In this document: positions 2,320 through 51,680 of the stretch, in pieces
How positions within the stretch are numbered: position 1 is the stretch's first letter
Layout of the letters: each line of letters starts with the position of its first letter
Source: Bacteroidia bacterium
GTDB lineage: Bacteria > Bacteroidota > Bacteroidia > M30B66
NCBI GenBank assembly: GCA_965279035.1
Contig: OZ257142.1
Coordinates: 608,001 to 672,000, forward strand
Direction: 5' to 3'
DNA: 64,000 nucleotides
Program-made: the position numbers and the translations under genes
Notes under the pieces: generated by a model
Databases searched by the model: none
Seen by the model: the letters and a program-made list of their open reading frames with translations, nothing else
Told to the model about the DNA's origin: nothing

Positions 2320-4938
2320 TTAATTTCCATTTTTAGATGACGTTCCAATTACTTGGATTGCTCCTTTTAACGTTGATGTTTGAATTCCATCCAATCGAAT
2401 TTCATTCACTTTGCACACATAAAAATAAACCCCATCAGGAACTTTTAAACCACTCGAAGAATCTGTTCCATTCCAACCTATTTCAGGTTTGTTGCTGCTA
2501 AATAGTTTATTACCCCAACGATTAAAAACGTCAAATTCGACCGACTCGATAAATGCATATGGAAATGGACTAAACACATCGTTTACGCCATCTCCATTTG
2601 GTGAAAAGGTATTGGGTAAATGATAAACCGGACAATTGTCGACACATGTTCGAATGAGAGGACTTTCGTTCATAAACGAATCTACTGCAGCTACTGCATA
2701 ACATCCCGCAATTGAACTCCCAGGAAAATGAATGAAACTCAGTTGCTGTCCTAAAGGAAATTCGTTCAATAAAACCAAAGTACCGGAAGTAGTTTCTGAA
2801 CGATAAATTCGGATTAATACCACATCATTATAACATGTCGAATCGGTCGGAAAATTCCAATGAATTGTATTTTTTAATGAATCACAGTTTGCTTCAACCA
2901 ATGTTTCAGGAGGACAAGGCGCTTGAGTATCTTTTGCACTTGTACAAACTTCTTGAGAAAGATTGAGTATCGGATGAATAAAACCATTGCCACTGTATGC
3001 TCCTACCGATTTCACCCGATAACAATAGGAAACGCCATTTGCTAATCCAAGATCTGAGTAGCTTTTCGTTTTACTATATCCAATGGAGTCAAACTGGATT
3101 GCACTTGGTGTTTTTCGGTACACTATAAACGAATCGTTTTGCCAAGGAACTGAAGTTTGCCAAGTCAAATTCACTTGATTATCGCTTCCGCTTGCCGATA
3201 AATAAATGGATGAAGCGGCTTGACTTTGTCCAACTAAAACCGGATTTCCGGGACTCAAATTCCGAAGCCCAATACGGTAAGTCCATGTTGTTTCAATGGT
3301 ATTCAAAGCAGATGAAATATCGCTGTATGTTGTATCATTTAAGTTATCGAGCGAATCAACCGGAGAAAAAAGATTCCCGTTCATTCCTTGAGCACGCTCT
3401 ACTATGTATCGGAATGGCCCAGGAAATTGAATGGTATCAATTGCTGTAGGTTTTGACCAAGCAATATCTACCTGTGCATTAGAACTTTGAGTTGAAATAA
3501 TACTCACATTCGTTATGACTGGAAGTATTTTGTCGAGTTGTACACAGGTTTCATTCGATGCATAACTCTCGGCACCATCGGCAAATACAGCAATGACCAT
3601 ATAACAATAGGAAGAGCCCGGTAATAATGGTCCCTGATCAGTATAAGTTAAGGTGGATAAACCCGTTACATTACTTAAGAATGTATAACCAGTATACGCT
3701 GGAACACCCGTTTCACAAGGATTTGATGTATATCCATAAAACCCTGATTTACGGTAAATGGCATATCCTATCGCTTGTTCGCAAGGACTTTGTTCCCACG
3801 TTAGTACAACTGATGTGTTTTGACTTACTGCTAGCAAACTTTCTGGAGCCTGAGCAACAACACGAATTTGCATGCTTTCAAAATCTGCCAAATTCGGGTT
3901 TCCATTATCAATCACTTTAAAGCTAAACTGATAAGGTTGTTTGCGCACATGCACACAGGATGTTTCCCAAATAAATTGCTGATTTACACTACCCAATTGG
4001 GTAACAGGAGCAAAAACGGCATTTCCGGGAGCTGGAAATTGAAATGGGCCACCCGTCGCACTTAATGTAATAGATTGTTGAGGGCTATCCGGATCAGATG
4101 CACTAACAGTGAAGTTGAGTATAGTTCCTGCATCAACACATAAATCGGGAAGTGGAACAATGGTCGGAGGTAGATTATTACATGGAACAACGCTAATTTG
4201 CATATCGCGTGTAACTGAACCGATGAGAATACCATGTCGCCATTCTTCTATGACAAACGCTACATTATATTCTCCTATCCCGCTTGGTAATGGGGAATCC
4301 CAAACTAAATCTCCAGTTATTGCATCTAAACTAAAACTGTTACTCGCTATTGGTTGATTGAATCCCGGAATGACTAAACCTCCTTCACCACGACAATCAA
4401 CTAAATGATACGAAATACTATCCCCATCGGGATCGAACGCACCTGGATTGTGAATGAAGATCTGACCTGGGCAAGCTTCGTCGATGGGAGGATTTAATAA
4501 TTGAACTGAATTATTGATTCCCAGAAAGGGATTGATGACTAGTTGGGTAGAAACATAAAAGGGAATGTTTACCGAATTGGGAATATTTACCAATCCACCA
4601 TTGCGATTAGGGTCTTCAAAACTGATTGTATAGATTGAAGGCCCAGGATAAGTATGAACACCAACGTAAATATTTTTCTTGATCGATGGGGCAACCAATT
4701 CACCCATGCCCGATCCGTTAATTCTAGGTATGGTATCTATAGATCCATCGCCCCAACTTATGCCCAAATCAGGTCTGTCGGCAGGGCTATCTGATTTGGT
4801 ATAGGTAATAATCGTGGCTTCATATTGAAAACCACCGAGGTGGCGATACGTAATTTCTCCAGCACGATTGTGCGTAGCATGAAGCAAACTACTTATGAGT
4901 AGTCCGAAAAGCAATAAAATCAGCTGACCGGTGCGCAT
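2320..4938 (-). CDS. Secreted multidomain (FN3/Ig-like) protein with T9SS type-B (gliding motility-associated) CTD
   Basis: Signal peptide from MRTGQL (4938), N-terminal HNRAGEITY motif, FN3-like repeats, C-terminal PNTFSPNGDGVND...FNRWG...DGVYFY. Confidence 0.85.
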   Translation of the reverse strand: MRTGQLILLLFGLLISSLLHATHNRAGEITYRHLGGFQYEATIITYTKSDSPADRPDLGISWGDGSIDTIPRINGSGMGELVAPSIKKNIYVGVHTYPGPSIYTISFEDPNRNGGLVNIPNSVNIPFYVSTQLVINPFLGINNSVQLLNPPIDEACPGQIFIHNPGAFDPDGDSISYHLVDCRGEGGLVIPGFNQPIASNSFSLDAITGDLVWDSPLPSGIGEYNVAFVIEEWRHGILIGSVTRDMQISVVPCNNLPPTIVPLPDLCVDAGTILNFTVSASDPDSPQQSITLSATGGPFQFPAPGNAVFAPVTQLGSVNQQFIWETSCVHVRKQPYQFSFKVIDNGNPNLADFESMQIRVVAQAPESLLAVSQNTSVVLTWEQSPCEQAIGYAIYRKSGFYGYTSNPCETGVPAYTGYTFLSNVTGLSTLTYTDQGPLLPGSSYCYMVIAVFADGAESYASNETCVQLDKILPVITNVSIISTQSSNAQVDIAWSKPTAIDTIQFPGPFRYIVERAQGMNGNLFSPVDSLDNLNDTTYSDISSALNTIETTWTYRIGLRNLSPGNPVLVGQSQAASSIYLSASGSDNQVNLTWQTSVPWQNDSFIVYRKTPSAIQFDSIGYSKTKSYSDLGLANGVSYCYRVKSVGAYSGNGFIHPILNLSQEVCTSAKDTQAPCPPETLVEANCDSLKNTIHWNFPTDSTCYNDVVLIRIYRSETTSGTLVLLNEFPLGQQLSFIHFPGSSIAGCYAVAAVDSFMNESPLIRTCVDNCPVYHLPNTFSPNGDGVNDVFSPFPYAFIESVEFDVFNRWGNKLFSSNKPEIGWNGTDSSSGLKVPDGVYFYVCKVNEIRLDGIQTSTLKGAIQVIGTSSKNGN

Positions 4939-5031: not shown

Positions 5032-7245
5032 TTAGTTTCCGAATTGAGAAATAAACTTGAGCCGCATTAAACGAAGCTCGTTTTCTCCAATTTCATCATC
5101 TCCCATTTCCTGAACTGCTGTTGCCATTGAATCGGTTTCTGCCTTGCGGAAATAATCCATGATTTCGTCTTGAATGTCTTCGTCTATCACATCATCAATG
5201 TAATAACTAATGTCGAGGCGTGTTCCAGAATAAACAATCGCTTCCATTTCTTCTATGAGAGCAACCAAGGTGAGTCCTTTGGAAGCAGCAATGTCTTCGA
5301 GTGAAATTTTACGATCAACGCTCTGAATGATGAAAACCTTTTGAGTGGATTTATTGACCACACTTTTCACCACCATATTCAATGGACGATCTACTTCGTT
5401 TTCTTGAACATATTGAGCAATCGTTTCCACAAATTCTTTTCCGTATTTCTCCGCTTTTCCTGCTCCAACACCTGCAATTTGTTTTAGCTCATCGAGGGTA
5501 ATTGGATATTGAATGGTCATATCGACCAAAGATTGCTCTTGGAAAATCACGTAAGGAGGCATATTCATGCGCTTCGCAATTTTACGAGTCAGATCTTTTA
5601 ACATGGAGAAAAGAACTTCGTCTGCAGCGGCGGCACCTTGTCCGGCTGATGCTATTTCATCTTCATCATCTGTATCGCTATAGTCATGATCATCGGTGAT
5701 CATCACTGGATATGGATTTTCGATGAAATCTGTACCCGATTTACTCAAATGAAGCGTTCCGTAGTTTTCAATTTCCTTTTCAAGAAATCCCATGACAACC
5801 GCTTGTCGAATAACGCCATTCCAATACAAGGTAGAGTGCTCAGAACCTTTACCGAACAATTCTATTTGATCGTGTTTGTAGGAAGTAATTGCGGAATCAA
5901 TCGTTCCAGTAAGAATATGATTGATATGCTTGTCCTTGAATTTTCCTTTTAATAATGCAACCGTATCGAGCACAAGACAAATGTCTTCCATGGCATCGAA
6001 CTTTTTCTTCGGATGACGGCAGTTGTCACACATGTTGTTGCAACCACTTTCGTCGTATTCTTCGCCGAAATAATGGAGTAAATATTTACGACGGCACATG
6101 GAAGTTTCAGCATAACCAACTGTTTCGGCTAGTAATTGCTGACCAATTTCCTGTTCTGCAACGTGTTTATTTTTAAGGAATTTCTCGAGTTTTTGAATGT
6201 CGTCGAAGCTGTAGAATGAAAGGCAAACACCTTCTCCACCATCACGTCCAGCGCGACCAGTTTCTTGGTAATAGCCTTCAAGACTTTTCGGCATTTCGTG
6301 ATGAATCACAAAACGTACGTCTGGCTTGTCGATTCCCATACCGAAGGCAATGGTTGCAACAATCACATCCGCTTCTTCCATAAGGAATTTATCCTGATGC
6401 GAAGCACGTGTAGAAGCATCTAAACCAGCATGATATGGAAGTGCTTTAATACCATTCACATTGAGAGTTTCAGCAATTTCTTCCACCTTTTTGCGGCTAA
6501 GGCAATAGATAATTCCTGATTTACCGGGATGTTGCTTGATGAATTTGATGATTTCTTTCGCGACATTTTTCTTCGGACGAACCTCATAATACAGGTTAGC
6601 ACGATTGAATGAACTTTTAAACAGGGTTGTTTCAACCATGTTCAAGTTCTTCATAATGTCCTGTTGCACTTTGGGTGTAGCAGTAGCAGTAAGAGCCATG
6701 ATTGGAACAGTTCCAATTGCTTCTATGATAGAACGAAGCCGGCGATACTCAGGACGGAAATCATGTCCCCACTCTGAAATACAATGCGCTTCGTCGATTG
6801 CGAAAAAGCTGATATTGATTTCTCGGAAGAACTGTACGTTTTCGTCTTTGGTCAAGGACTCAGGTGCTACATATAATAGTTTTGTAACTCCATTGGTGAT
6901 GTCTTCCCGAACGCGTGTGATTTCCGCTTTGTTAAGTGATGAGTTTAGGAAATGTGCAATTCCTGTTGCTCCACCAAAATTCCGTATCGAATCAACCTGA
7001 TTCTTCATCAAGGCAATCAAAGGAGAAACAATGATTGCAGTTCCTTCAGATATTAAAGCAGGCAATTGATAGCACATCGACTTACCACCGCCTGTAGGCA
7101 TGATAACAAATGTGTCGTTGCCATCGAGAATGTTTCGAATGATGGCCTCCTGCTCACCTTTGAACTTAGTAAATCCAAAATACTTCTTTAAATGACCTGT
7201 GAGGTCTATCGTCGTTTCGACAGCTTCCAACATGCTGTTTATCAA
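5032..7245 (-). CDS. recQ: ATP-dependent DNA helicase RecQ
   Basis: MPTGGGKS, DEAHCISEWGHDFRP, TATAT, QETGRAGRDG, Zn-binding CRRK...CDNC, RQC and HRDC regions. The start may be a few codons in (MLEAVE, 7233). Confidence 0.97.
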   Translation of the reverse strand: MINSMLEAVETTIDLTGHLKKYFGFTKFKGEQEAIIRNILDGNDTFVIMPTGGGKSMCYQLPALISEGTAIIVSPLIALMKNQVDSIRNFGGATGIAHFLNSSLNKAEITRVREDITNGVTKLLYVAPESLTKDENVQFFREINISFFAIDEAHCISEWGHDFRPEYRRLRSIIEAIGTVPIMALTATATPKVQQDIMKNLNMVETTLFKSSFNRANLYYEVRPKKNVAKEIIKFIKQHPGKSGIIYCLSRKKVEEIAETLNVNGIKALPYHAGLDASTRASHQDKFLMEEADVIVATIAFGMGIDKPDVRFVIHHEMPKSLEGYYQETGRAGRDGGEGVCLSFYSFDDIQKLEKFLKNKHVAEQEIGQQLLAETVGYAETSMCRRKYLLHYFGEEYDESGCNNMCDNCRHPKKKFDAMEDICLVLDTVALLKGKFKDKHINHILTGTIDSAITSYKHDQIELFGKGSEHSTLYWNGVIRQAVVMGFLEKEIENYGTLHLSKSGTDFIENPYPVMITDDHDYSDTDDEDEIASAGQGAAAADEVLFSMLKDLTRKIAKRMNMPPYVIFQEQSLVDMTIQYPITLDELKQIAGVGAGKAEKYGKEFVETIAQYVQENEVDRPLNMVVKSVVNKSTQKVFIIQSVDRKISLEDIAASKGLTLVALIEEMEAIVYSGTRLDISYYIDDVIDEDIQDEIMDYFRKAETDSMATAVQEMGDDEIGENELRLMRLKFISQFGN

Positions 7246-46320: not shown

Positions 46321-47232
46321 ATGAAACCAAAAGGAAAAAGTACGGCCTATCTTGAACTTCATACCGCTGTATTTCTTTTTGGATTTACAGGAATTCTCGG
46401 TCGTTTAATTTCGCTCGATGCCGGATTGCTTGTGTGGCATCGCCTCTGGATGACGGCTGTTTTGATGTTTATTTACGTAAAATATATTGGGAAATTTAGG
46501 TTGCTACATTGGAAAGAAATACTACGCATTGCAGCGATTTCTCTAGCCATTGTATTTCACTGGATCCTTTTTTATGGTGCAATAAAATTAGCTAGTGTTT
46601 CGGTGGCGATGATTTGTTTGTCATCAATCACTTTGTTTACTGCTTTGCTAGAACCAATACTGTTTAAAAAATCATTCTCCCCAGTTCAAATTATCTTTTC
46701 TGTTTTAGTCATTGTGGGAGTTTCCTTTATGGCGCAAGATCAACAAGAGCACGTTGTAGGAATCATGGTTGGCTTGGCTTCCGCATTTTTTAGTGCCTTG
46801 TTTACCGTTCTAAATAAATCCATTATAAGTCGTTACGATTCACGTTTGCTTTCCTTGTATGAAATGGCTTTGGGATTTGTTTTATTAACGTTTTTAATGC
46901 CATTAGTCGATATGTGGCTTCCCTTAGGAAACTGGATGCCGGTTCCTAGCGATTGGGGATATTTAATTCTGTTGAGTTTCTTCTGTACTGTTGTTGCCTT
47001 TAATCTGTCCTTAAGTTCGTTGAGGTCGATTAGTGCTTTTACGGTAAATTTAGCGATCAATCTCGAGCCGGTATATGGAATTGCCTTGGCCTTCTTGGTT
47101 TTCCAAGAACATAAATTATTAGGTGCAGGATTTTATATTGGAGCAGTAATTATTTTAGCAACTGTGCTCGGAGAAGTTCTTTGGAAACGTAACAGAGAAA
47201 AGAAATTCGCAACTACCAAGGTGAAAATTTAA
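46321..47232 (+). CDS. DMT/EamA family transporter
   Basis: About 10 TM segments in two EamA repeats (FTALLEP, INLEPVYG). Confidence 0.9.
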   Translation: MKPKGKSTAYLELHTAVFLFGFTGILGRLISLDAGLLVWHRLWMTAVLMFIYVKYIGKFRLLHWKEILRIAAISLAIVFHWILFYGAIKLASVSVAMICLSSITLFTALLEPILFKKSFSPVQIIFSVLVIVGVSFMAQDQQEHVVGIMVGLASAFFSALFTVLNKSIISRYDSRLLSLYEMALGFVLLTFLMPLVDMWLPLGNWMPVPSDWGYLILLSFFCTVVAFNLSLSSLRSISAFTVNLAINLEPVYGIALAFLVFQEHKLLGAGFYIGAVIILATVLGEVLWKRNREKKFATTKVKI

Positions 47233-48367
47233 TTCCGAAAAAGATCCCATTAAGTGTATAATCGAAACCTTCCAACGTTTCAATTCTTTTTTCGTGAGTT
47301 GCCGAAATATAAGCGTTAAGCTTTCTATTGGGAAACCAGTTAAGTGATGCCCCTATGCGCGATTGGGTGATGTCATACGAATTGTTGATCAAGAAACCAT
47401 TGTTTTCGATGATGTTTCGTGTATTCCCAGAATAATAATCCAAGCCCAACCAGAATTTGTTGGATATTCTAATTTGGATAGAAGGCTTATGTACCCAATT
47501 GATTGAACTGTTTTGCTGTTGTGAAATCACCTGGTATTTAAAGATTACAGTGCTATTTCCCTCGGGATACCATGTTATTCCTGCCGTTTCTTGAATTTGA
47601 TTATCGTAATTCATATTACCAGCATCCACATTCAAATCAACATCCCAATTGCTAATCGATTTTCGAATTCCAAATCCTCCAACTTGATGTTGCAAAAAAT
47701 GTTGGCTTTTATCATTATAGTTCACCACAATATCGAGGTAGGAGAAATTACCTCGAATAGAAAAACCCGTTCGATTTTGCCAGTTTACATATCCCGAATA
47801 CACCTGTTGTTTGACTAGCGAATAATAATTCGATTGACCAATATTGGAATAGGCAGCATGAATAAAAAGAGATGGATGTGGCGACAAATTAACTCCAAAG
47901 GAGCTATATTTTAAATTACCAATTGCGTCACTATTACTGTTTTTAGAACCTATATCAGCTGTTATGGAATTTAAAGATTCTGTTTTATAACGAGCTTGTT
48001 TTGTTGCTCCTAAGTTCAACAATTGTTTGCCAACAAGGACTGCTTCCTGAGTTCTCCCACATTCTCTCAAAGCAGCTTCTAAATACAAAAGAGAAAAAGT
48101 ATCTGCCGAATTTAAACGTGTAGCTCGCCGAAATTCATCTATTGCAATTCGGTATTTCTTCAATCGAAAGGCTGCTTCTCCAAGTCGATATCTTAAAAAG
48201 TAATATTCTTGACCACTTACCTTAATTAAATCTTTTCGATGATTATACAGCGAATCCCATTGTCCACCAAGATACCATGTGTATGAAGTTAATTCAGGAT
48301 CAGCCTCGATTGTCTGCGCAGAAACCCTTCCAACCAAGAGAATAATAAATAGAAATAAAACACGCAT
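47213..48367 (-). CDS. Exported protein with N-terminal TPR-like helices and a probable C-terminal beta-barrel
   Basis: Signal peptide from MRVLF; YRLGEAAFRLKKYRIAIDEFRRATRLN; beta-rich remainder ending FFGIKFSPW. Confidence 0.65.
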   Translation of the reverse strand: MRVLFLFIILLVGRVSAQTIEADPELTSYTWYLGGQWDSLYNHRKDLIKVSGQEYYFLRYRLGEAAFRLKKYRIAIDEFRRATRLNSADTFSLLYLEAALRECGRTQEAVLVGKQLLNLGATKQARYKTESLNSITADIGSKNSNSDAIGNLKYSSFGVNLSPHPSLFIHAAYSNIGQSNYYSLVKQQVYSGYVNWQNRTGFSIRGNFSYLDIVVNYNDKSQHFLQHQVGGFGIRKSISNWDVDLNVDAGNMNYDNQIQETAGITWYPEGNSTVIFKYQVISQQQNSSINWVHKPSIQIRISNKFWLGLDYYSGNTRNIIENNGFLINNSYDITQSRIGASLNWFPNRKLNAYISATHEKRIETLEGFDYTLNGIFFGIKFSPW

Positions 48368-48429
48368 CGGCGACAAAGATGGTTCAATCACCGAAGAGTT
48401 TAAAATGAAAAAATATTTAATAATTGAAT

Positions 48430-48476
48430 TTATCCAACACTTCCTTCCAAACGAACGGAATTAGTTTTTGTGCTTC
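48430..48476 (-). repeat. Degenerate direct-repeat copy of the sufB 3' end
   Basis: 45 of 48 positions identical to 49823-49870, including the stop codon; two substitutions and a 1-bp deletion. Confidence 0.92.
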
Positions 48477-48550
48477 CTCAGCAAACCAGAATGTAGAGAT
48501 TTTGGTTGACAAATATGTTTCTATGTAAGCATATTGGATTACAATAGTGA

Positions 48551-48580
48551 ACAAATGTAAATAATATCATTTACATTTGT
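48551..48580. promoter_or_regulatory. Perfect 12-bp inverted repeat containing back-to-back -7 boxes (candidate operator and bidirectional promoter)
   Basis: ACAAATGTAAAT-AATATC-ATTTACATTTGT; TACATTTG on + (48572-48579) and on - (48552-48559). Confidence 0.7.
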
Positions 48581-48602
48581 GTGTTAAAAATTCATGTGCC
48601 TT

Positions 48603-49064
48603 ATGAGGACAACGAAAAAATTACTTGTTGAACAGCTAGATAGAAAATTGAAACCCTTTTTTGGAACAGAGAAAGTTATTGTTCCAGATCAAGGATGGAT
48701 AAACAACATTAGAAAAACTCTAAATATGACATTAGAGCAATTGGGCAGTAAGCTAAATGTAACTCGACAAGGAGCAAAAAAAATTGAAATGAGTGAAGCG
48801 CAAGGAACAATTTCATTGAAATCAATGAAAGAAATTGGAGGAGTTCTAAATATGCAATTCGTATATGGCTTCGTACCAAAAGATGGTTCGATAGAAAATT
48901 TGATAAACCACAAAGCCGAAGAACTTGCTAGAAAAATTGTTTTGCGAACAAATCAAAATATGAAACTAGAAAACCAAGGAAATACTGAGGAGCAAATAAT
49001 AAGGGCAATTAACGATTTGACAAATGAAATAAAAAGAGAATTGAATAAATCTTTATGGGATTAG
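48603..49064 (+). CDS. Mobile mystery protein A (XRE HTH)
   Basis: VPDQGWINNIRKTLNMTLEQLGSKL...EMSEAQGTISLKSM...FVYGFVP...MKLENQ, ending LWD; overlaps the Fic gene. An alternative start at 48594 is possible. Confidence 0.9.
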   Translation: MRTTKKLLVEQLDRKLKPFFGTEKVIVPDQGWINNIRKTLNMTLEQLGSKLNVTRQGAKKIEMSEAQGTISLKSMKEIGGVLNMQFVYGFVPKDGSIENLINHKAEELARKIVLRTNQNMKLENQGNTEEQIIRAINDLTNEIKRELNKSLWD

Positions 49065-49651
49065 AACTCGAATATGAAGACGGGCAAACACCGTTAAGTG
49101 AAGAAGAAAAAGAAGGATTACGATTAAAAACAATTACTACACATGGCGAATTAGATGAGCATGAACAGTTAAATATTGAGAAAGCGATTGAATGGACAAT
49201 AAAAACAAAATTCAAAACGGAAAAAATATTAACCGAAGATTTTATAAAACTACTTCATAAAAAAATGCTCGGAAATGTTTGGACCTGGGCAGGAGAATTT
49301 CGAAAATCAGAAAAGAACATTGGAGTTAAATGGGTGATGATTAGAATTGAATTGAAGGCACTACTTGAAGACACAAAGTATTGGATAGAAAATAAGACTT
49401 TTTCAGATGAAGAGATTGCAATTCGATTCAAACACCGCTTAGTAAATATTCATTGCTTCCCGAATGGTAATGGGCGACATTCAAGAATAATGGCAGATAT
49501 AATTATGGAATCAATATTCGGAAATGAACCATTTTCATGGAATCATTCCAATATGGTTAAAGCCAATCAAACTAGGAAAAACTATATAAATGCAATACGA
49601 GAAGGCGATATAGGAAACATTCAACCCTTAATCGACTTTGCGAAAAACTAA
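49055..49651 (+). CDS. Mobile mystery protein B (Fic domain)
   Basis: GQTPL, LHKKMLGNVWTWAGEFR, Fic motif HCFPNGNGRHSR. Confidence 0.92.
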   Translation: MGLELEYEDGQTPLSEEEKEGLRLKTITTHGELDEHEQLNIEKAIEWTIKTKFKTEKILTEDFIKLLHKKMLGNVWTWAGEFRKSEKNIGVKWVMIRIELKALLEDTKYWIENKTFSDEEIAIRFKHRLVNIHCFPNGNGRHSRIMADIIMESIFGNEPFSWNHSNMVKANQTRKNYINAIREGDIGNIQPLIDFAKN

Positions 49652-49822
49652 TAATCTGTAGATATAAGCACAGGATAGAAAAGTCAAACTTTCTGATTCA
49701 TTAATTCATCCTATTTTATCTGGACATTTATTCAATGAATCCATTCTACTCACTTTATTAAGTTCTTCAACTGTGTGAAGTTTGGAGATTAATGTAAACT
49801 GCTAAAATGACTTAGGCTTCAA

Positions 49823-51271
49823 TTATCCAACACTTCCTTCCAAACTAACGGAAAGTAGTTTTTGTGCTTCTACTGCAAATTCCATCGGTAATTGTTTCAA
49901 AACCTCTTTGCAATATCCATTTACTATTAAGCCAATGGCTTTCTCAGTATCAATTCCACGTTGTTTACAGTAAAACAATTGGTCTTCACCAATCTTAGAA
50001 GTAGTGGCTTCGTGTTCAACAATGGCGGTAGGATTTTTTATTTCAATGTATGGAAAGGTGTGCGCTCCGCATTGATCACCCATGAGCAATGAATCACATT
50101 GAGAAAAATTACGCGCATTGGCTGCTTTCAGACTGATACGAACTAATCCACGATAACTATTTTGACTTTTACCAGCAGAGATTCCTTTGGAGATGATGGT
50201 GCTTTTCGTGTTTTTGCCCAAATGAATCATCTTGGTTCCGGTGTCGGCTTGTTGCATATTGTTGGTTACTGCAACAGAGTAAAATTCACCCACCGATGAA
50301 TCTCCTTTCAAAATCACACTTGGGTATTTCCAGGTGATGGCTGAGCCTGTTTCTACTTGTGTCCAGGAAATTTTTGCACCATATCCAGCGCATATGCCTC
50401 GTTTGGTAACGAAATTAAAAATTCCTCCAAGGCCGTTTTTATCACCTGGATACCAATTCTGAACGGTGCTGTATTTTACTTCTCCTTTTTCTTGTGCAAT
50501 AATTTCTACAACGGCAGCATGAAGTTGATTTTCGTCACGCATGGGAGCTGTACAACCTTCCAAATAACTCACGTAAGCGCCTTCTTCAGCAATAATTAAC
50601 GTGCGTTCGAACTGACCTGTTCCGGATGCATTGATACGGAAATAGGTAGATAATTCCATAGGACAACGAACACCTTTAGGAATATAACAAAATGAGCCAT
50701 CAGTAAATACTGCAGAATTCAAGGCTGCATAGTAATTATCTGTATAAGGAACCACCGAGCCCATATATTTCTGGACTAATTCGGGATGATCAATTACCGC
50801 TTCACTAAAGGAGCAGAAAATTATTCCTAGCTCGCCCAGTTTTTCTTTGAATGTGGTTTTTACCGAAACCGAATCAATTACTGCATCTACTGCAACTCCT
50901 GTAAGTCGCTTTTGTTCGAGAAGTGAAATGCCCAGTTTTTCGAATGTTTTACGAAGTTCCGGATCTACTTCATCTAAGCTATTGAGTTGTTTTGTTTTCT
51001 TGGGTGCAGCATAATAGATTATGTTTTGGAAATCTATTTTCGGATAATGCACATGTGCCCAAACTGGTTCTTCCAATGTTATCCAATACCGATACGCCTT
51101 TAATCGGTAGGCCAACATCCATTCTGGTTCTTTCTTTTTTGCAGAAATAAAACGGATGATATCTTCATTCAGCCCTTTGGGCGCAGAATCCATCTCGATA
51201 TCAGTGGTAAATCCCCACTTATAATCGGAATTGATGTGCGATTCAAGAATTTCGTTGCCCTCTGCTGACAT
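49823..51271 (-). CDS. sufB: Fe-S cluster assembly protein SufB
   Basis: [52 protein letters not shown]; no intein. Confidence 0.98.
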
Positions 51272-51290
51272 GATTTATATTTAAAAAAAA

Positions 51291-51617
51291 TTAAACGGCG
51301 AAACTTTCTCCGCATCCGCAAGTTCGTGTCGCATTTGGATTATTAAATGAAAATCCTTTCCCATTCAATCCTCCCGAATACTCGAGTACTGTTCCTACCA
51401 AATACAAGAAACTCTTCTTATCAACCAGAATTTTCACTCCCTTGTCTTCAAATAACTGATCTCCATCACGTCGTTCTGCATCAAAATCCATTTTATAAGA
51501 AAGTCCAGAACAACCTCCTCCTTCAACACCAACACGTAAATAACTATCAACTTTATGATTTCCTTCAGTCATTAAGCTCATCAATTTTTCTTTTGCAGTT
51601 TCAGATACTGATATCAT
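51291..51617 (-). CDS. A-type Fe-S carrier (IscA/SufA/HesB family)
   Basis: GGGCSGLSY and NPNATRTCGCGESF. Start taken at MISVSE (51617). Confidence 0.95.
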   Translation of the reverse strand: MISVSETAKEKLMSLMTEGNHKVDSYLRVGVEGGGCSGLSYKMDFDAERRDGDQLFEDKGVKILVDKKSFLYLVGTVLEYSGGLNGKGFSFNNPNATRTCGCGESFAV

Positions 51618-51680
51618 ATTGAATCTATCTTTTCTGTTAAACAAGCAGCTTTCGGTTTAGTTTCAAAAGCAGGGTTTTTA

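Follow-up and report, generated by a model that had tools for sequence, protein, structure and literature searches.

Mobile mystery proteins A and B between two copies of the sufB 3' end: a derived insertion and a candidate Campbell-type crossover

How does a small gene pair that encodes no recombinase come to lie between two copies of the end of a chromosomal gene? The question is raised by a locus in a 64,000-nucleotide stretch of DNA from a Bacteroidia bacterium (assembly GCA_965279035.1, contig OZ257142.1, positions 608,001 to 672,000 of the forward strand), here called the window; positions are counted from its first letter. The locus carries the genes of mobile mystery proteins A and B (hereafter A and B) next to sufB. 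Mobile mystery proteins were named by NCBI for a sporadic, evidently mobile distribution without a known vehicle. An earlier note, made from the sequence of the window, had described the pair as a cassette bracketed by a duplicated sufB 3' end, an att-like scar without an integrase. We found that the cassette is a derived insertion at the sufB terminus and that the same design recurs at other loci with other target genes. With confidence slightly better than even, we favour a Campbell-type crossover as the origin of the structure in the window, with a Fic toxin-antitoxin or defence module as the cargo.

We compared the two sufB ends by several methods. A repeat search aligned 48430-48460 with 49823-49853 (31 nt, 97%, spacing 1393) and 48459-48485 with 49853-49879 (27 nt, 85%, spacing 1394). 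The copies therefore differ by an insertion or deletion of 1 nt. Their identity was 93.75% over 48 columns in blastn and 51 of 57 columns in a global alignment, with exact blocks of 23 nt and 15 nt. The coordinates, identity, exact blocks and extension of the repeat to 48485/49879, as reported in the earlier note, were all reproduced. An exact 23-mer pair is expected by chance at 2.9e-5, and the 23-mer had no further site in the 64 kb on either strand with up to 3 mismatches. The distal copy, an orphan, begins at the stop codon and differs from the proximal copy by a 1-nt deletion and five substitutions. Its translation (ORF, open reading frame, 48417-48554) reads ...FAEEAQKL and then goes out of frame, while the proximal copy completes an intact SufB, both as the note had read them. 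The orphan runs directly into the native spacer leading to the neighbouring gene, called here gene X. Analysis of open reading frames and profiles also bore out that the copies are 1393 bp apart and enclose A and B only, on the + strand and opposed to sufB on the - strand. The insert between the repeats is 1,337 bp long, and its GC content is 0.29-0.35, compared with 0.36-0.43 outside.

Gene X marks the native downstream side of sufB, and we scanned it against the genomes of 185,579 species. One close relative was found (L001), with 63% amino-acid identity in gene X and 94% in SufB. In L001 the genes sufA, sufB and gene X are contiguous, and the gap between sufB and gene X is approximately 90 bp. 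Gene X was further matched in 10 of 60 relatives of the L001 genome. In all six good matches (E <= 1e-29) the end of sufB lay 60-125 bp from gene X without the cassette. Since sufB adjoins gene X in 6 of 6 relatives, the adjacency is ancestral and the additional 1,393 bases of the window are an insertion. These empty sites agree with the entry of the cassette at the sufB terminus that had been proposed before.

Misassembly, which the earlier note had already thought improbable, is unlikely. In three sequencing runs of one sample, probably the source of the genome, positions 47400-50900 were each time contained in a single contig, which showed 0 differences from the window. In a run from a different study, a 656-bp contig corresponded to 49598-50253 and covers the end of B, the spacer and part of sufB at approximately 85% identity. 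The insertion is old and not a recent jump, because it is common to at least one diverged relative at this identity. The same run (X1, bioreactor sludge) contained a 1,108-bp contig that was 96% identical to 48556-49623, with 40 bases to the left of 48556 that were unlike the window. Such a near-identical core in a different left-hand context suggests exchange of the core between cassettes.

We then asked how often the pair is bracketed elsewhere. Of 401 sampled Bacteroidota genomes, 41 contained TIGR02613, the family of B, with a score over the cut-off and a single match each, and a metagenome scan with B returned 80 loci with 63-86% identity. The 600 bp upstream of A were compared with the 600 bp downstream of B in loci with enough flank, the window included. 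Bracketing repeats were detected in 18 of 85 loci with scores of 19-161, the maximum of 503 mismatched control pairs being 16; the other 67 loci scored at the null level. Five near-identical contig pairs among the positives were collapsed, which left 13 distinct cases. L120 is a fourteenth, with its left arm cut off by the start of the contig. With blastn, bracketing repeats of at least 40 bp were found in 17 of 84 eligible loci. Non-bracketing repeat pairs of the same spacing numbered 5 in 558,517 bases, and 2 of these were extra arm copies.

The bracketed cassettes have similar limits. Their repeat units are 1,245-1,833 bp apart and the arms are 44-288 bp long. The left arm ends 106-159 bp before the start of A in 10 of the 14 cases, and the right arm begins at -7 to 33 bp past the stop codon of B in 6. 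Homology between the DNA of different cassettes stops in every case at the stop codon of B (+0 to +3); on the left it ends 38-146 bp before the start of A, and in the window it begins at 48556. The left side of the window cassette fits the family (108 bp), and its right side has 171 extra bases. This spacer (49652-49822) has no homology to other cassettes, which match only up to the B stop codon, and it is kept at approximately 85% identity in the contig of the other study. Its fold z-score was -0.14, no better than that of shuffled sequences, and no terminator, tRNA or notable Rfam match was found in the spacer and its surroundings. The spacer may be DNA carried along with the cassette.

The arms are pieces of whatever DNA adjoins the cassette. 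The arm is a 3' gene end in the window (sufB), in L120 (a SufD-type gene), in L064 (a GNAT gene) and in L109 (a small gene). The L028 arm covers 288 bp across the 3' ends of two convergent genes, and the L101 arm comprises the last 25 nt of tRNA-Leu with its terminator. The arms of L057, L053, L076 and L082 are 5' ends or upstream regions of neighbouring genes. The empty site of L028 was seen in two related genomes, where the flanks overlap by approximately 271 bp and a single arm copy is present. A further match to the L028 arm, on another contig, was dismissed as a third copy, since it is the end of a paralogous gene. For L026, a cassette that lacks bracketing repeats, no empty site was seen among the available relatives, which are distant.

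At three of these loci the insert supplies the target gene with a replacement end. In L064 the intact GNAT gene leaves the left arm and has its end, ...MEQWNVNL*, within the insert; the orphan copy, situated after B, ends ...MEQLNKSL* and continues into native downstream DNA. The intact gene of L109 ends ...FRKRK* inside the insert, and the orphan ends ...FRKKK*, followed by a terminator. In L120 the SufD-type gene has its last 12 codons (ATKLGVNLGFDL*) within the insert. Duplication in situ cannot leave the functional gene and the orphan with different tails. A crossover with a diverged gene-end copy borne by the cassette can, and for the family these loci point to the crossover. The att-like scar read from the window thus fits its family, in which copies of the local target bracket the homologues as well.

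Two loci hold arrays. In L057 a sequence of approximately 72 bp, which corresponds to the initial 20 codons of a Zn-ribbon gene, is present three times with limits that coincide within a few bases, and its copies set a SoFic-type Fic gene apart from the A/B pair. The array (L057:2757-7085), small and of defence type, stands before the Zn-ribbon gene and consists of a TIR-like gene, the SoFic-type gene and the A/B pair. The copies of the Zn-ribbon start are at 3974-4030, 5312-5383 and 6714-6785, and one such copy follows the SoFic-type gene and another the A/B pair. L047:3649-6825 (also L048) has three non-coding repeats of approximately 220 bp, 89-90% identical, that form the boundaries of two cassettes and directly precede an Rrf2-sufA-fdx-sufB-sufC operon. 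Its first and second repeats run into paralogous ORFs of 119 and 133 aa, and no Rfam family matched the repeat.

Single loci showed other features. On the - strand of L028, positions 2116-2192 match RF00029, a group II intron domain (47.1 bits with a gathering score of 40), within a 372-bp spacer between B and the right arm. L098 (300-410 and 1840-1965) and L101 (40-185) have the same cassette and the same relic of a tRNA-Leu end on the right side. In L098 there is no intact tRNA on the left, and its repeat is 105 bp long as compared with 81 bp in L101. Arms therefore change after insertion. Cassettes of the lineage lie beside suf genes in four contexts, namely at the sufB end (window 49823-51271), upstream of the suf operon (L047/L048), and at a SufD-type end in two loci (L115:961-1710 and L120:1288-2586). 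In our judgement this adjacency exceeds chance placement, and the cassettes could spread through homology in conserved genes.

No recombinase or transposase domain was present in any of the 52 ORFs of the window (0/52), in keeping with the integrase-less scar of the earlier note. The neighbours of other cassettes were also scanned. Of the 162 flanking ORFs nearest to these cassettes, 93 were covered, with the exclusion of near-duplicate contigs and of GTDB loci. We detected integrase domains in 2 of the 93 and an IS200-type transposase in 1; in general the neighbours are ordinary housekeeping genes. Terminal inverted repeats were found in 0 of 14 bracketed inserts, with scores in the range of shuffled sequences. 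A DDE transposon of insertion sequence (IS) type or a miniature inverted-repeat element was rejected, as the terminal inverted repeats are missing and the direct repeats are 44-288 bp long and variable, not a fixed short duplication. No common core motif was seen by eye at the arm ends of the 14 pairs, and an RYYYAAC-like heptamer at the start of the window arm is at chance level by estimate. A pattern of an exact block beside a diverged one was considered as a mark of the crossover. It was significant in 5 of the 14 pairs (L053, L057, L076, L082 and L101); in the window it was not (P = 0.26), and it was not used there.

The earlier note had also suggested that the sufB 3' end is a hotspot for cassette capture. 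A degenerate pattern of the last seven sufB codons, which decayed copies escape, matched 237 of the 401 sampled Bacteroidota genomes, and a reversed control pattern matched approximately 20 of 401. A nearby second copy was present in 0 of the 237, so the general hotspot was rejected. Three genomes (G001, G163 and G425) had two matches each, which lay on different contigs or approximately 700 kb apart. The site in the window is one among many used by the cassette family and not a special trap. The features of the locus are collected in Table 1.

Table 1. Features of the sufB locus in the window
Feature	Coordinates	Strand	Basis or remark
Gene X (neighbouring gene)	47213..48391	-	ORF list; likely true start ATG at 48367
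Orphan (distal) sufB-end copy	48430..48485	-	Repeat of the last 57 bp of sufB
Operator/promoter region of the cassette	48486..48593	+	Two palindromes; homology limits
Mobile mystery protein A	48594..49064	+	TIGR02612, HTH_3
Mobile mystery protein B	49055..49651	+	TIGR02613, Pfam Fic
AT-rich spacer, 171 bp, B stop codon to sufB stop codon	49652..49822		Homology limits
Proximal sufB-end copy	49823..49879	-	Functional last 19 codons including stop
sufB, intact, 482 aa	49823..51271	-	NF008773, 904.8 bits
sufA/IscA-type gene	51291..51644	-	TIGR00049; precedes sufB

The product of gene X has a signal-peptide-like N-terminus, and its start was aligned with that of L001. No Pfam family was found for it in profile searches of the window ORFs. 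In this clade (window 47213-51644) sufA-sufB is followed by this unrelated gene of secreted or outer-membrane type, instead of sufC, sufD and sufS. The SufD-like gene of the nearest genome is on a separate contig (G001:C254).

What does the cassette encode? A scored 133.9 bits with TIGR02612 (cut-off 122.6) and B 244.1 bits with TIGR02613 (cut-off 124.4). The two genes overlap by 10 nt with A first, and among 110 fetched loci A adjoins B in 107, while the rest are mostly cut off at a contig edge. Just 5' of A there are two palindromes, TGTAA-N10-TTACA, at 48524-48543 and 48556-48575. The pattern has 4 matches in the window as compared with 0.45 expected, and 2 of the 4 stand before A; an inverted repeat was also called in the operator region by the repeat search. 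In other loci two to four palindromes of the GTAAAC..GTTTAC type were present upstream of A.

B has the motif H133-C-F-P-N-G-N-G-R141-H-S-R144. In 46 aligned pairs H-x-F-x-N-G-N-G-R-x-x-R was invariant, and so were the single residues H133, F135, G138, N139, G140, R141 and R144. The motif of class I Fic toxins, in the excerpted text of the source, is HxFx(D/E)GNGRxxR (PMC5033356), so that B has N137 at a position normally occupied by D or E. Further, B matched the PADLOC candidate defence family PDC-S04 (3.8e-22) and, distantly, FICD structures. For A, an XRE-type helix-turn-helix protein of 156 aa, no solved relative was found by sequence. Its residue E126 is invariant within a conserved M-K-L-E-x-Q stretch in the same 46 pairs. 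The sequence of A here is N122-M-K-L-E126-N127, in which the S/T of [S/T]xxxE[G/N] is absent.

We predicted the structure of the A-B complex. The interaction prediction score from aligned errors (ipSAE) was 0.70, the best of three controls being 0.00, a value which may partly reflect solved FicT-FicA structures. In the benchmark, 58 of 80 solved complexes scored this high, as did 2 of 110 mismatched pairs. The partners had a predicted local distance difference test value (pLDDT) of at least 88, and at least 95% of the contacts agreed between runs. In the model, residues 111-130 of A, its conserved C-terminal helix, touch G138, G140, R141 and R144 of B. E126 is predicted to contact R141, and residues 122 and 125 to contact R144. 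In class I Fic toxin-antitoxin pairs the inhibitory glutamate of the partner likewise meets the arginine of the motif, according to the excerpted source (PMC5033356). A is likely an antitoxin and autorepressor, and B is likely a toxin or defence effector. The pair is most likely a self-regulated, class-I-like Fic toxin-antitoxin or defence module, an activity that we infer.

The structure in the window can be explained as follows. The cassette would be a minimal recombinase-free unit made of the operator region, gene A, the Fic gene B and the 171-bp tail. A circular form of it, or an equivalent ends-in linear form, would have carried its own copy of the last approximately 57 bp of a sufB. This copy would have recombined with the resident sufB end in a Campbell-type single reciprocal crossover. 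As the outcome, sufB would have stayed complete through the proximal copy, and the second copy, at present out of frame, would have been stranded beside the native spacer on the downstream side. The crossover would have been made in trans, because the cassette encodes no DNA enzyme. The enzyme could be host homologous recombination acting on short homology or an unlinked site-specific recombinase. We slightly prefer the host pathway, for which speak locus-specific arms without an evident common motif, the absence of a sufB-targeting element in 237 genomes and the exact blocks of 23-69 bp in most young pairs. An unlinked recombinase could account for the sharp cassette limits, the reuse of arm limits in arrays and the classic targets at gene ends and tRNA ends. 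After insertion A would repress the operon through the two palindromes and its glutamate-bearing helix would block the active site of B. The cassette would persist because the pair, as we propose, is addictive, and at present it appears as an old insertion that behaves as a fixed resident. The routes offered in the earlier note (mobilisation in trans, homology-driven capture, or the remnant of a larger island) all stay in play in a narrower form, and none is singled out.

Several observations weigh against this crossover. No circle, excision joint or empty-site read was seen in the contigs, which cannot show rare forms. The 67 of 85 cassettes that have no bracketing repeat call either for decay of the repeats or for another route of entry. 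The crossover model does not account for the 171-bp tail, and it presupposes that the cassette had acquired a sufB end beforehand, the origin of which it does not explain. The longest exact block in the window is only 23 bp, at the minimal length for recombination of the RecA type. The six positions at which the sufB copies differ show no clustering (P = 0.26), lineage-specific synonymous states are common to both copies, and no mosaic was detectable in sufB (max-chi-square permutation P = 0.20). For the window alone, duplication in situ followed by decay fits as well, so the case for a crossover is weaker in the window taken by itself than in the family.

Which other histories could have led to this structure? 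An integrase-bearing island may have entered at the sufB 3' end and lost everything except the A/B pair and its att copies. We consider this unlikely, with a real share of support. The cis-mobilizable elements (CIMEs) are defined exactly so in the excerpted source (PMC5704250). L126 has a tyrosine integrase 115 bp upstream of A, and in L078 the cassette is adjoined by an integrase fragment; the 171-bp spacer could be a leftover. The pair, which had no match among 50,697 phage records, was found on 253 plasmid records and is thus a common cargo of other replicons. Set against this, decay would have had to halt independently at common limits in 13 distinct loci whose targets differ. Homology between cassettes goes exactly as far as the stop codon of B, and the arm limits fall into narrow ranges in 6/14 cases on the right and 10/14 on the left. 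The 237 matched genomes contained no second sufB end and hence no island that targets sufB. A long target-site duplication, produced by insertion machinery acting in trans or by template switching during replication, with the orphan decaying since, is in our view improbable. It would fit the synonymous states common to both sufB copies, which are complete in none of 7 other sufB ends, as well as the even spread of the 6 differences (P = 0.26), which include a frameshift and non-synonymous changes and look like decay. Arm lengths of 44-288 bp, targets without an evident common motif and exactly one copy at empty sites are also what it predicts. It cannot produce the functional ends inside the inserts of L064, L109 and L120, which differ from the native tails behind the orphans. 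The arm limits reused within a few bases in arrays and the lack of terminal inverted repeats also speak against it. We know of no bacterial transposition system with duplications this long.

The cassette could also have arrived by one-sided homologous import, in which a linear donor brought the 3' part of sufB with the cassette and its far end was joined illegitimately 57 bp inside the sufB end of the recipient. The gene is highly conserved and would be a good anchor, and the closest relatives of the cassette are likewise found by suf genes, upstream of the suf operon (L047/L048) or at a SufD-type end (L115, L120). Sliding identity between the sufB of the window and that of L047 was 84-85% in the last 250 bp and 66-79% elsewhere. 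This rise was not significant, since the informative sites gave no breakpoint in the max-chi-square permutation (P = 0.20). An import of this kind cannot build L028, where both flanking gene ends are duplicated, and it leaves the arrays unaccounted for; we regard it as very unlikely. Chance similarity or an artefact of assembly is practically negligible, given the expectation of 2.9e-5 for the 23-mer pair, the three runs with 0 differences, the contig of another study across the B-sufB junction and the same design at other loci.

The Campbell-type crossover may be extended to the family. In this tentative extension, which we hold to be possible and rather doubtful, the pair is the cargo of a recombinase-free element, a small circle that carries the gene end of its last host or adjacent conserved DNA and re-enters by homology; alternatively, an unlinked capture recombinase serves arbitrary gene ends of Bacteroidota. 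If true, the former would be an addiction module that hitchhikes on homology and is retargetable by picking up new flanks, and either would explain how the mobile mystery pair spreads.

For the window itself the significance is modest: one old, fixed insertion of a probable Fic toxin-antitoxin or defence module beside an essential gene of iron-sulfur assembly. The main value lies in a family-wide signature for the mobile mystery pair. This structural signature of chromosomal entry is that approximately one fifth of the sampled cassettes lie between copies of their own target DNA, with some replacement gene ends, neither a recombinase nor inverted repeats, and some arrays with other defence-type cassettes. 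The question of movement can now be tested, as recA-dependent versus recombinase-dependent integration of a 1.3-kb circle. In publications that use the term mobile mystery protein the name was incidental to the subject, as far as titles and the openings of abstracts show. No literature combining sufB, attB, integrase and genomic island was found, and for toxin-antitoxin cassettes with direct repeats or target duplications the listed records were of unrelated work.

The earlier note had called the arrangement the best candidate for an undescribed system, which is overstated, as CIMEs have already been described. These are elements that keep attL and attR and have lost the integrase, that is, decayed integrative and conjugative or integrative and mobilizable elements with a known cognate integrase, according to the excerpted text (PMC5704250). 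The cassette of the window resembles them in being flanked by attL/attR-like copies containing a housekeeping gene's 3' end (their att function being putative), in having no integration or transfer genes between the repeats, and, at L057 and L047, in tandem accretion at one site. It differs in that no cognate integrase or parent element was found for it, and in that the same 1.1-kb cargo recurs at many targets with varying arms, a pattern that is not expected from decay. Excision or mobilisation of CIMEs can be driven by an integrase in cis or in trans; the contigs, in which rare forms drop out, gave no joint spanning the cassette.

In staphylococci, the staphylococcal cassette chromosome (SCC) and pseudo-SCC elements occupy the 3' end of rlmH (orfX), one fixed target, through the serine recombinases Ccr. 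The likeness consists in the lack of an own recombinase, repeats of a conserved gene end, arrays and movement in trans; the mobile mystery cassettes differ in that their targets vary by locus and no recombinase was identified. Campbell-type insertion-duplication and capture of the F-prime or specialised-transducing type are known as a laboratory outcome and from large episomes. They share with the cassette direct repeats of a homologous fragment of any length and sequence, made without a dedicated recombinase. To our knowledge, Campbell integration has not been described as the natural lifestyle of a 1.3-kb toxin-antitoxin cassette.

With the class I Fic modules VbhT/VbhA and EcFicT/EcFicA, as presented in the excerpt of PMC5033356, the pair shares an upstream partner whose glutamate helix is predicted to lie on the arginines of the Fic motif. 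It differs from them in the larger size of A (156 aa), its helix-turn-helix domain, N-x-x-x-E-N in place of [S/T]xxxE[G/N], and the N of B in place of D/E. Integron cassettes are likewise small units, promoter-poor or self-contained and often toxin-antitoxin pairs, that are arrayed without their own recombinase. This class was rejected for the window, as the repeats are sufB coding sequence and not attC, the 3' region has a z-score of -0.14 and no integron integrase is present in the window. In summary, the type of the cassette is an att-flanked, integrase-less element, and what looks new is its recurrence for the mobile mystery pair at many targets.

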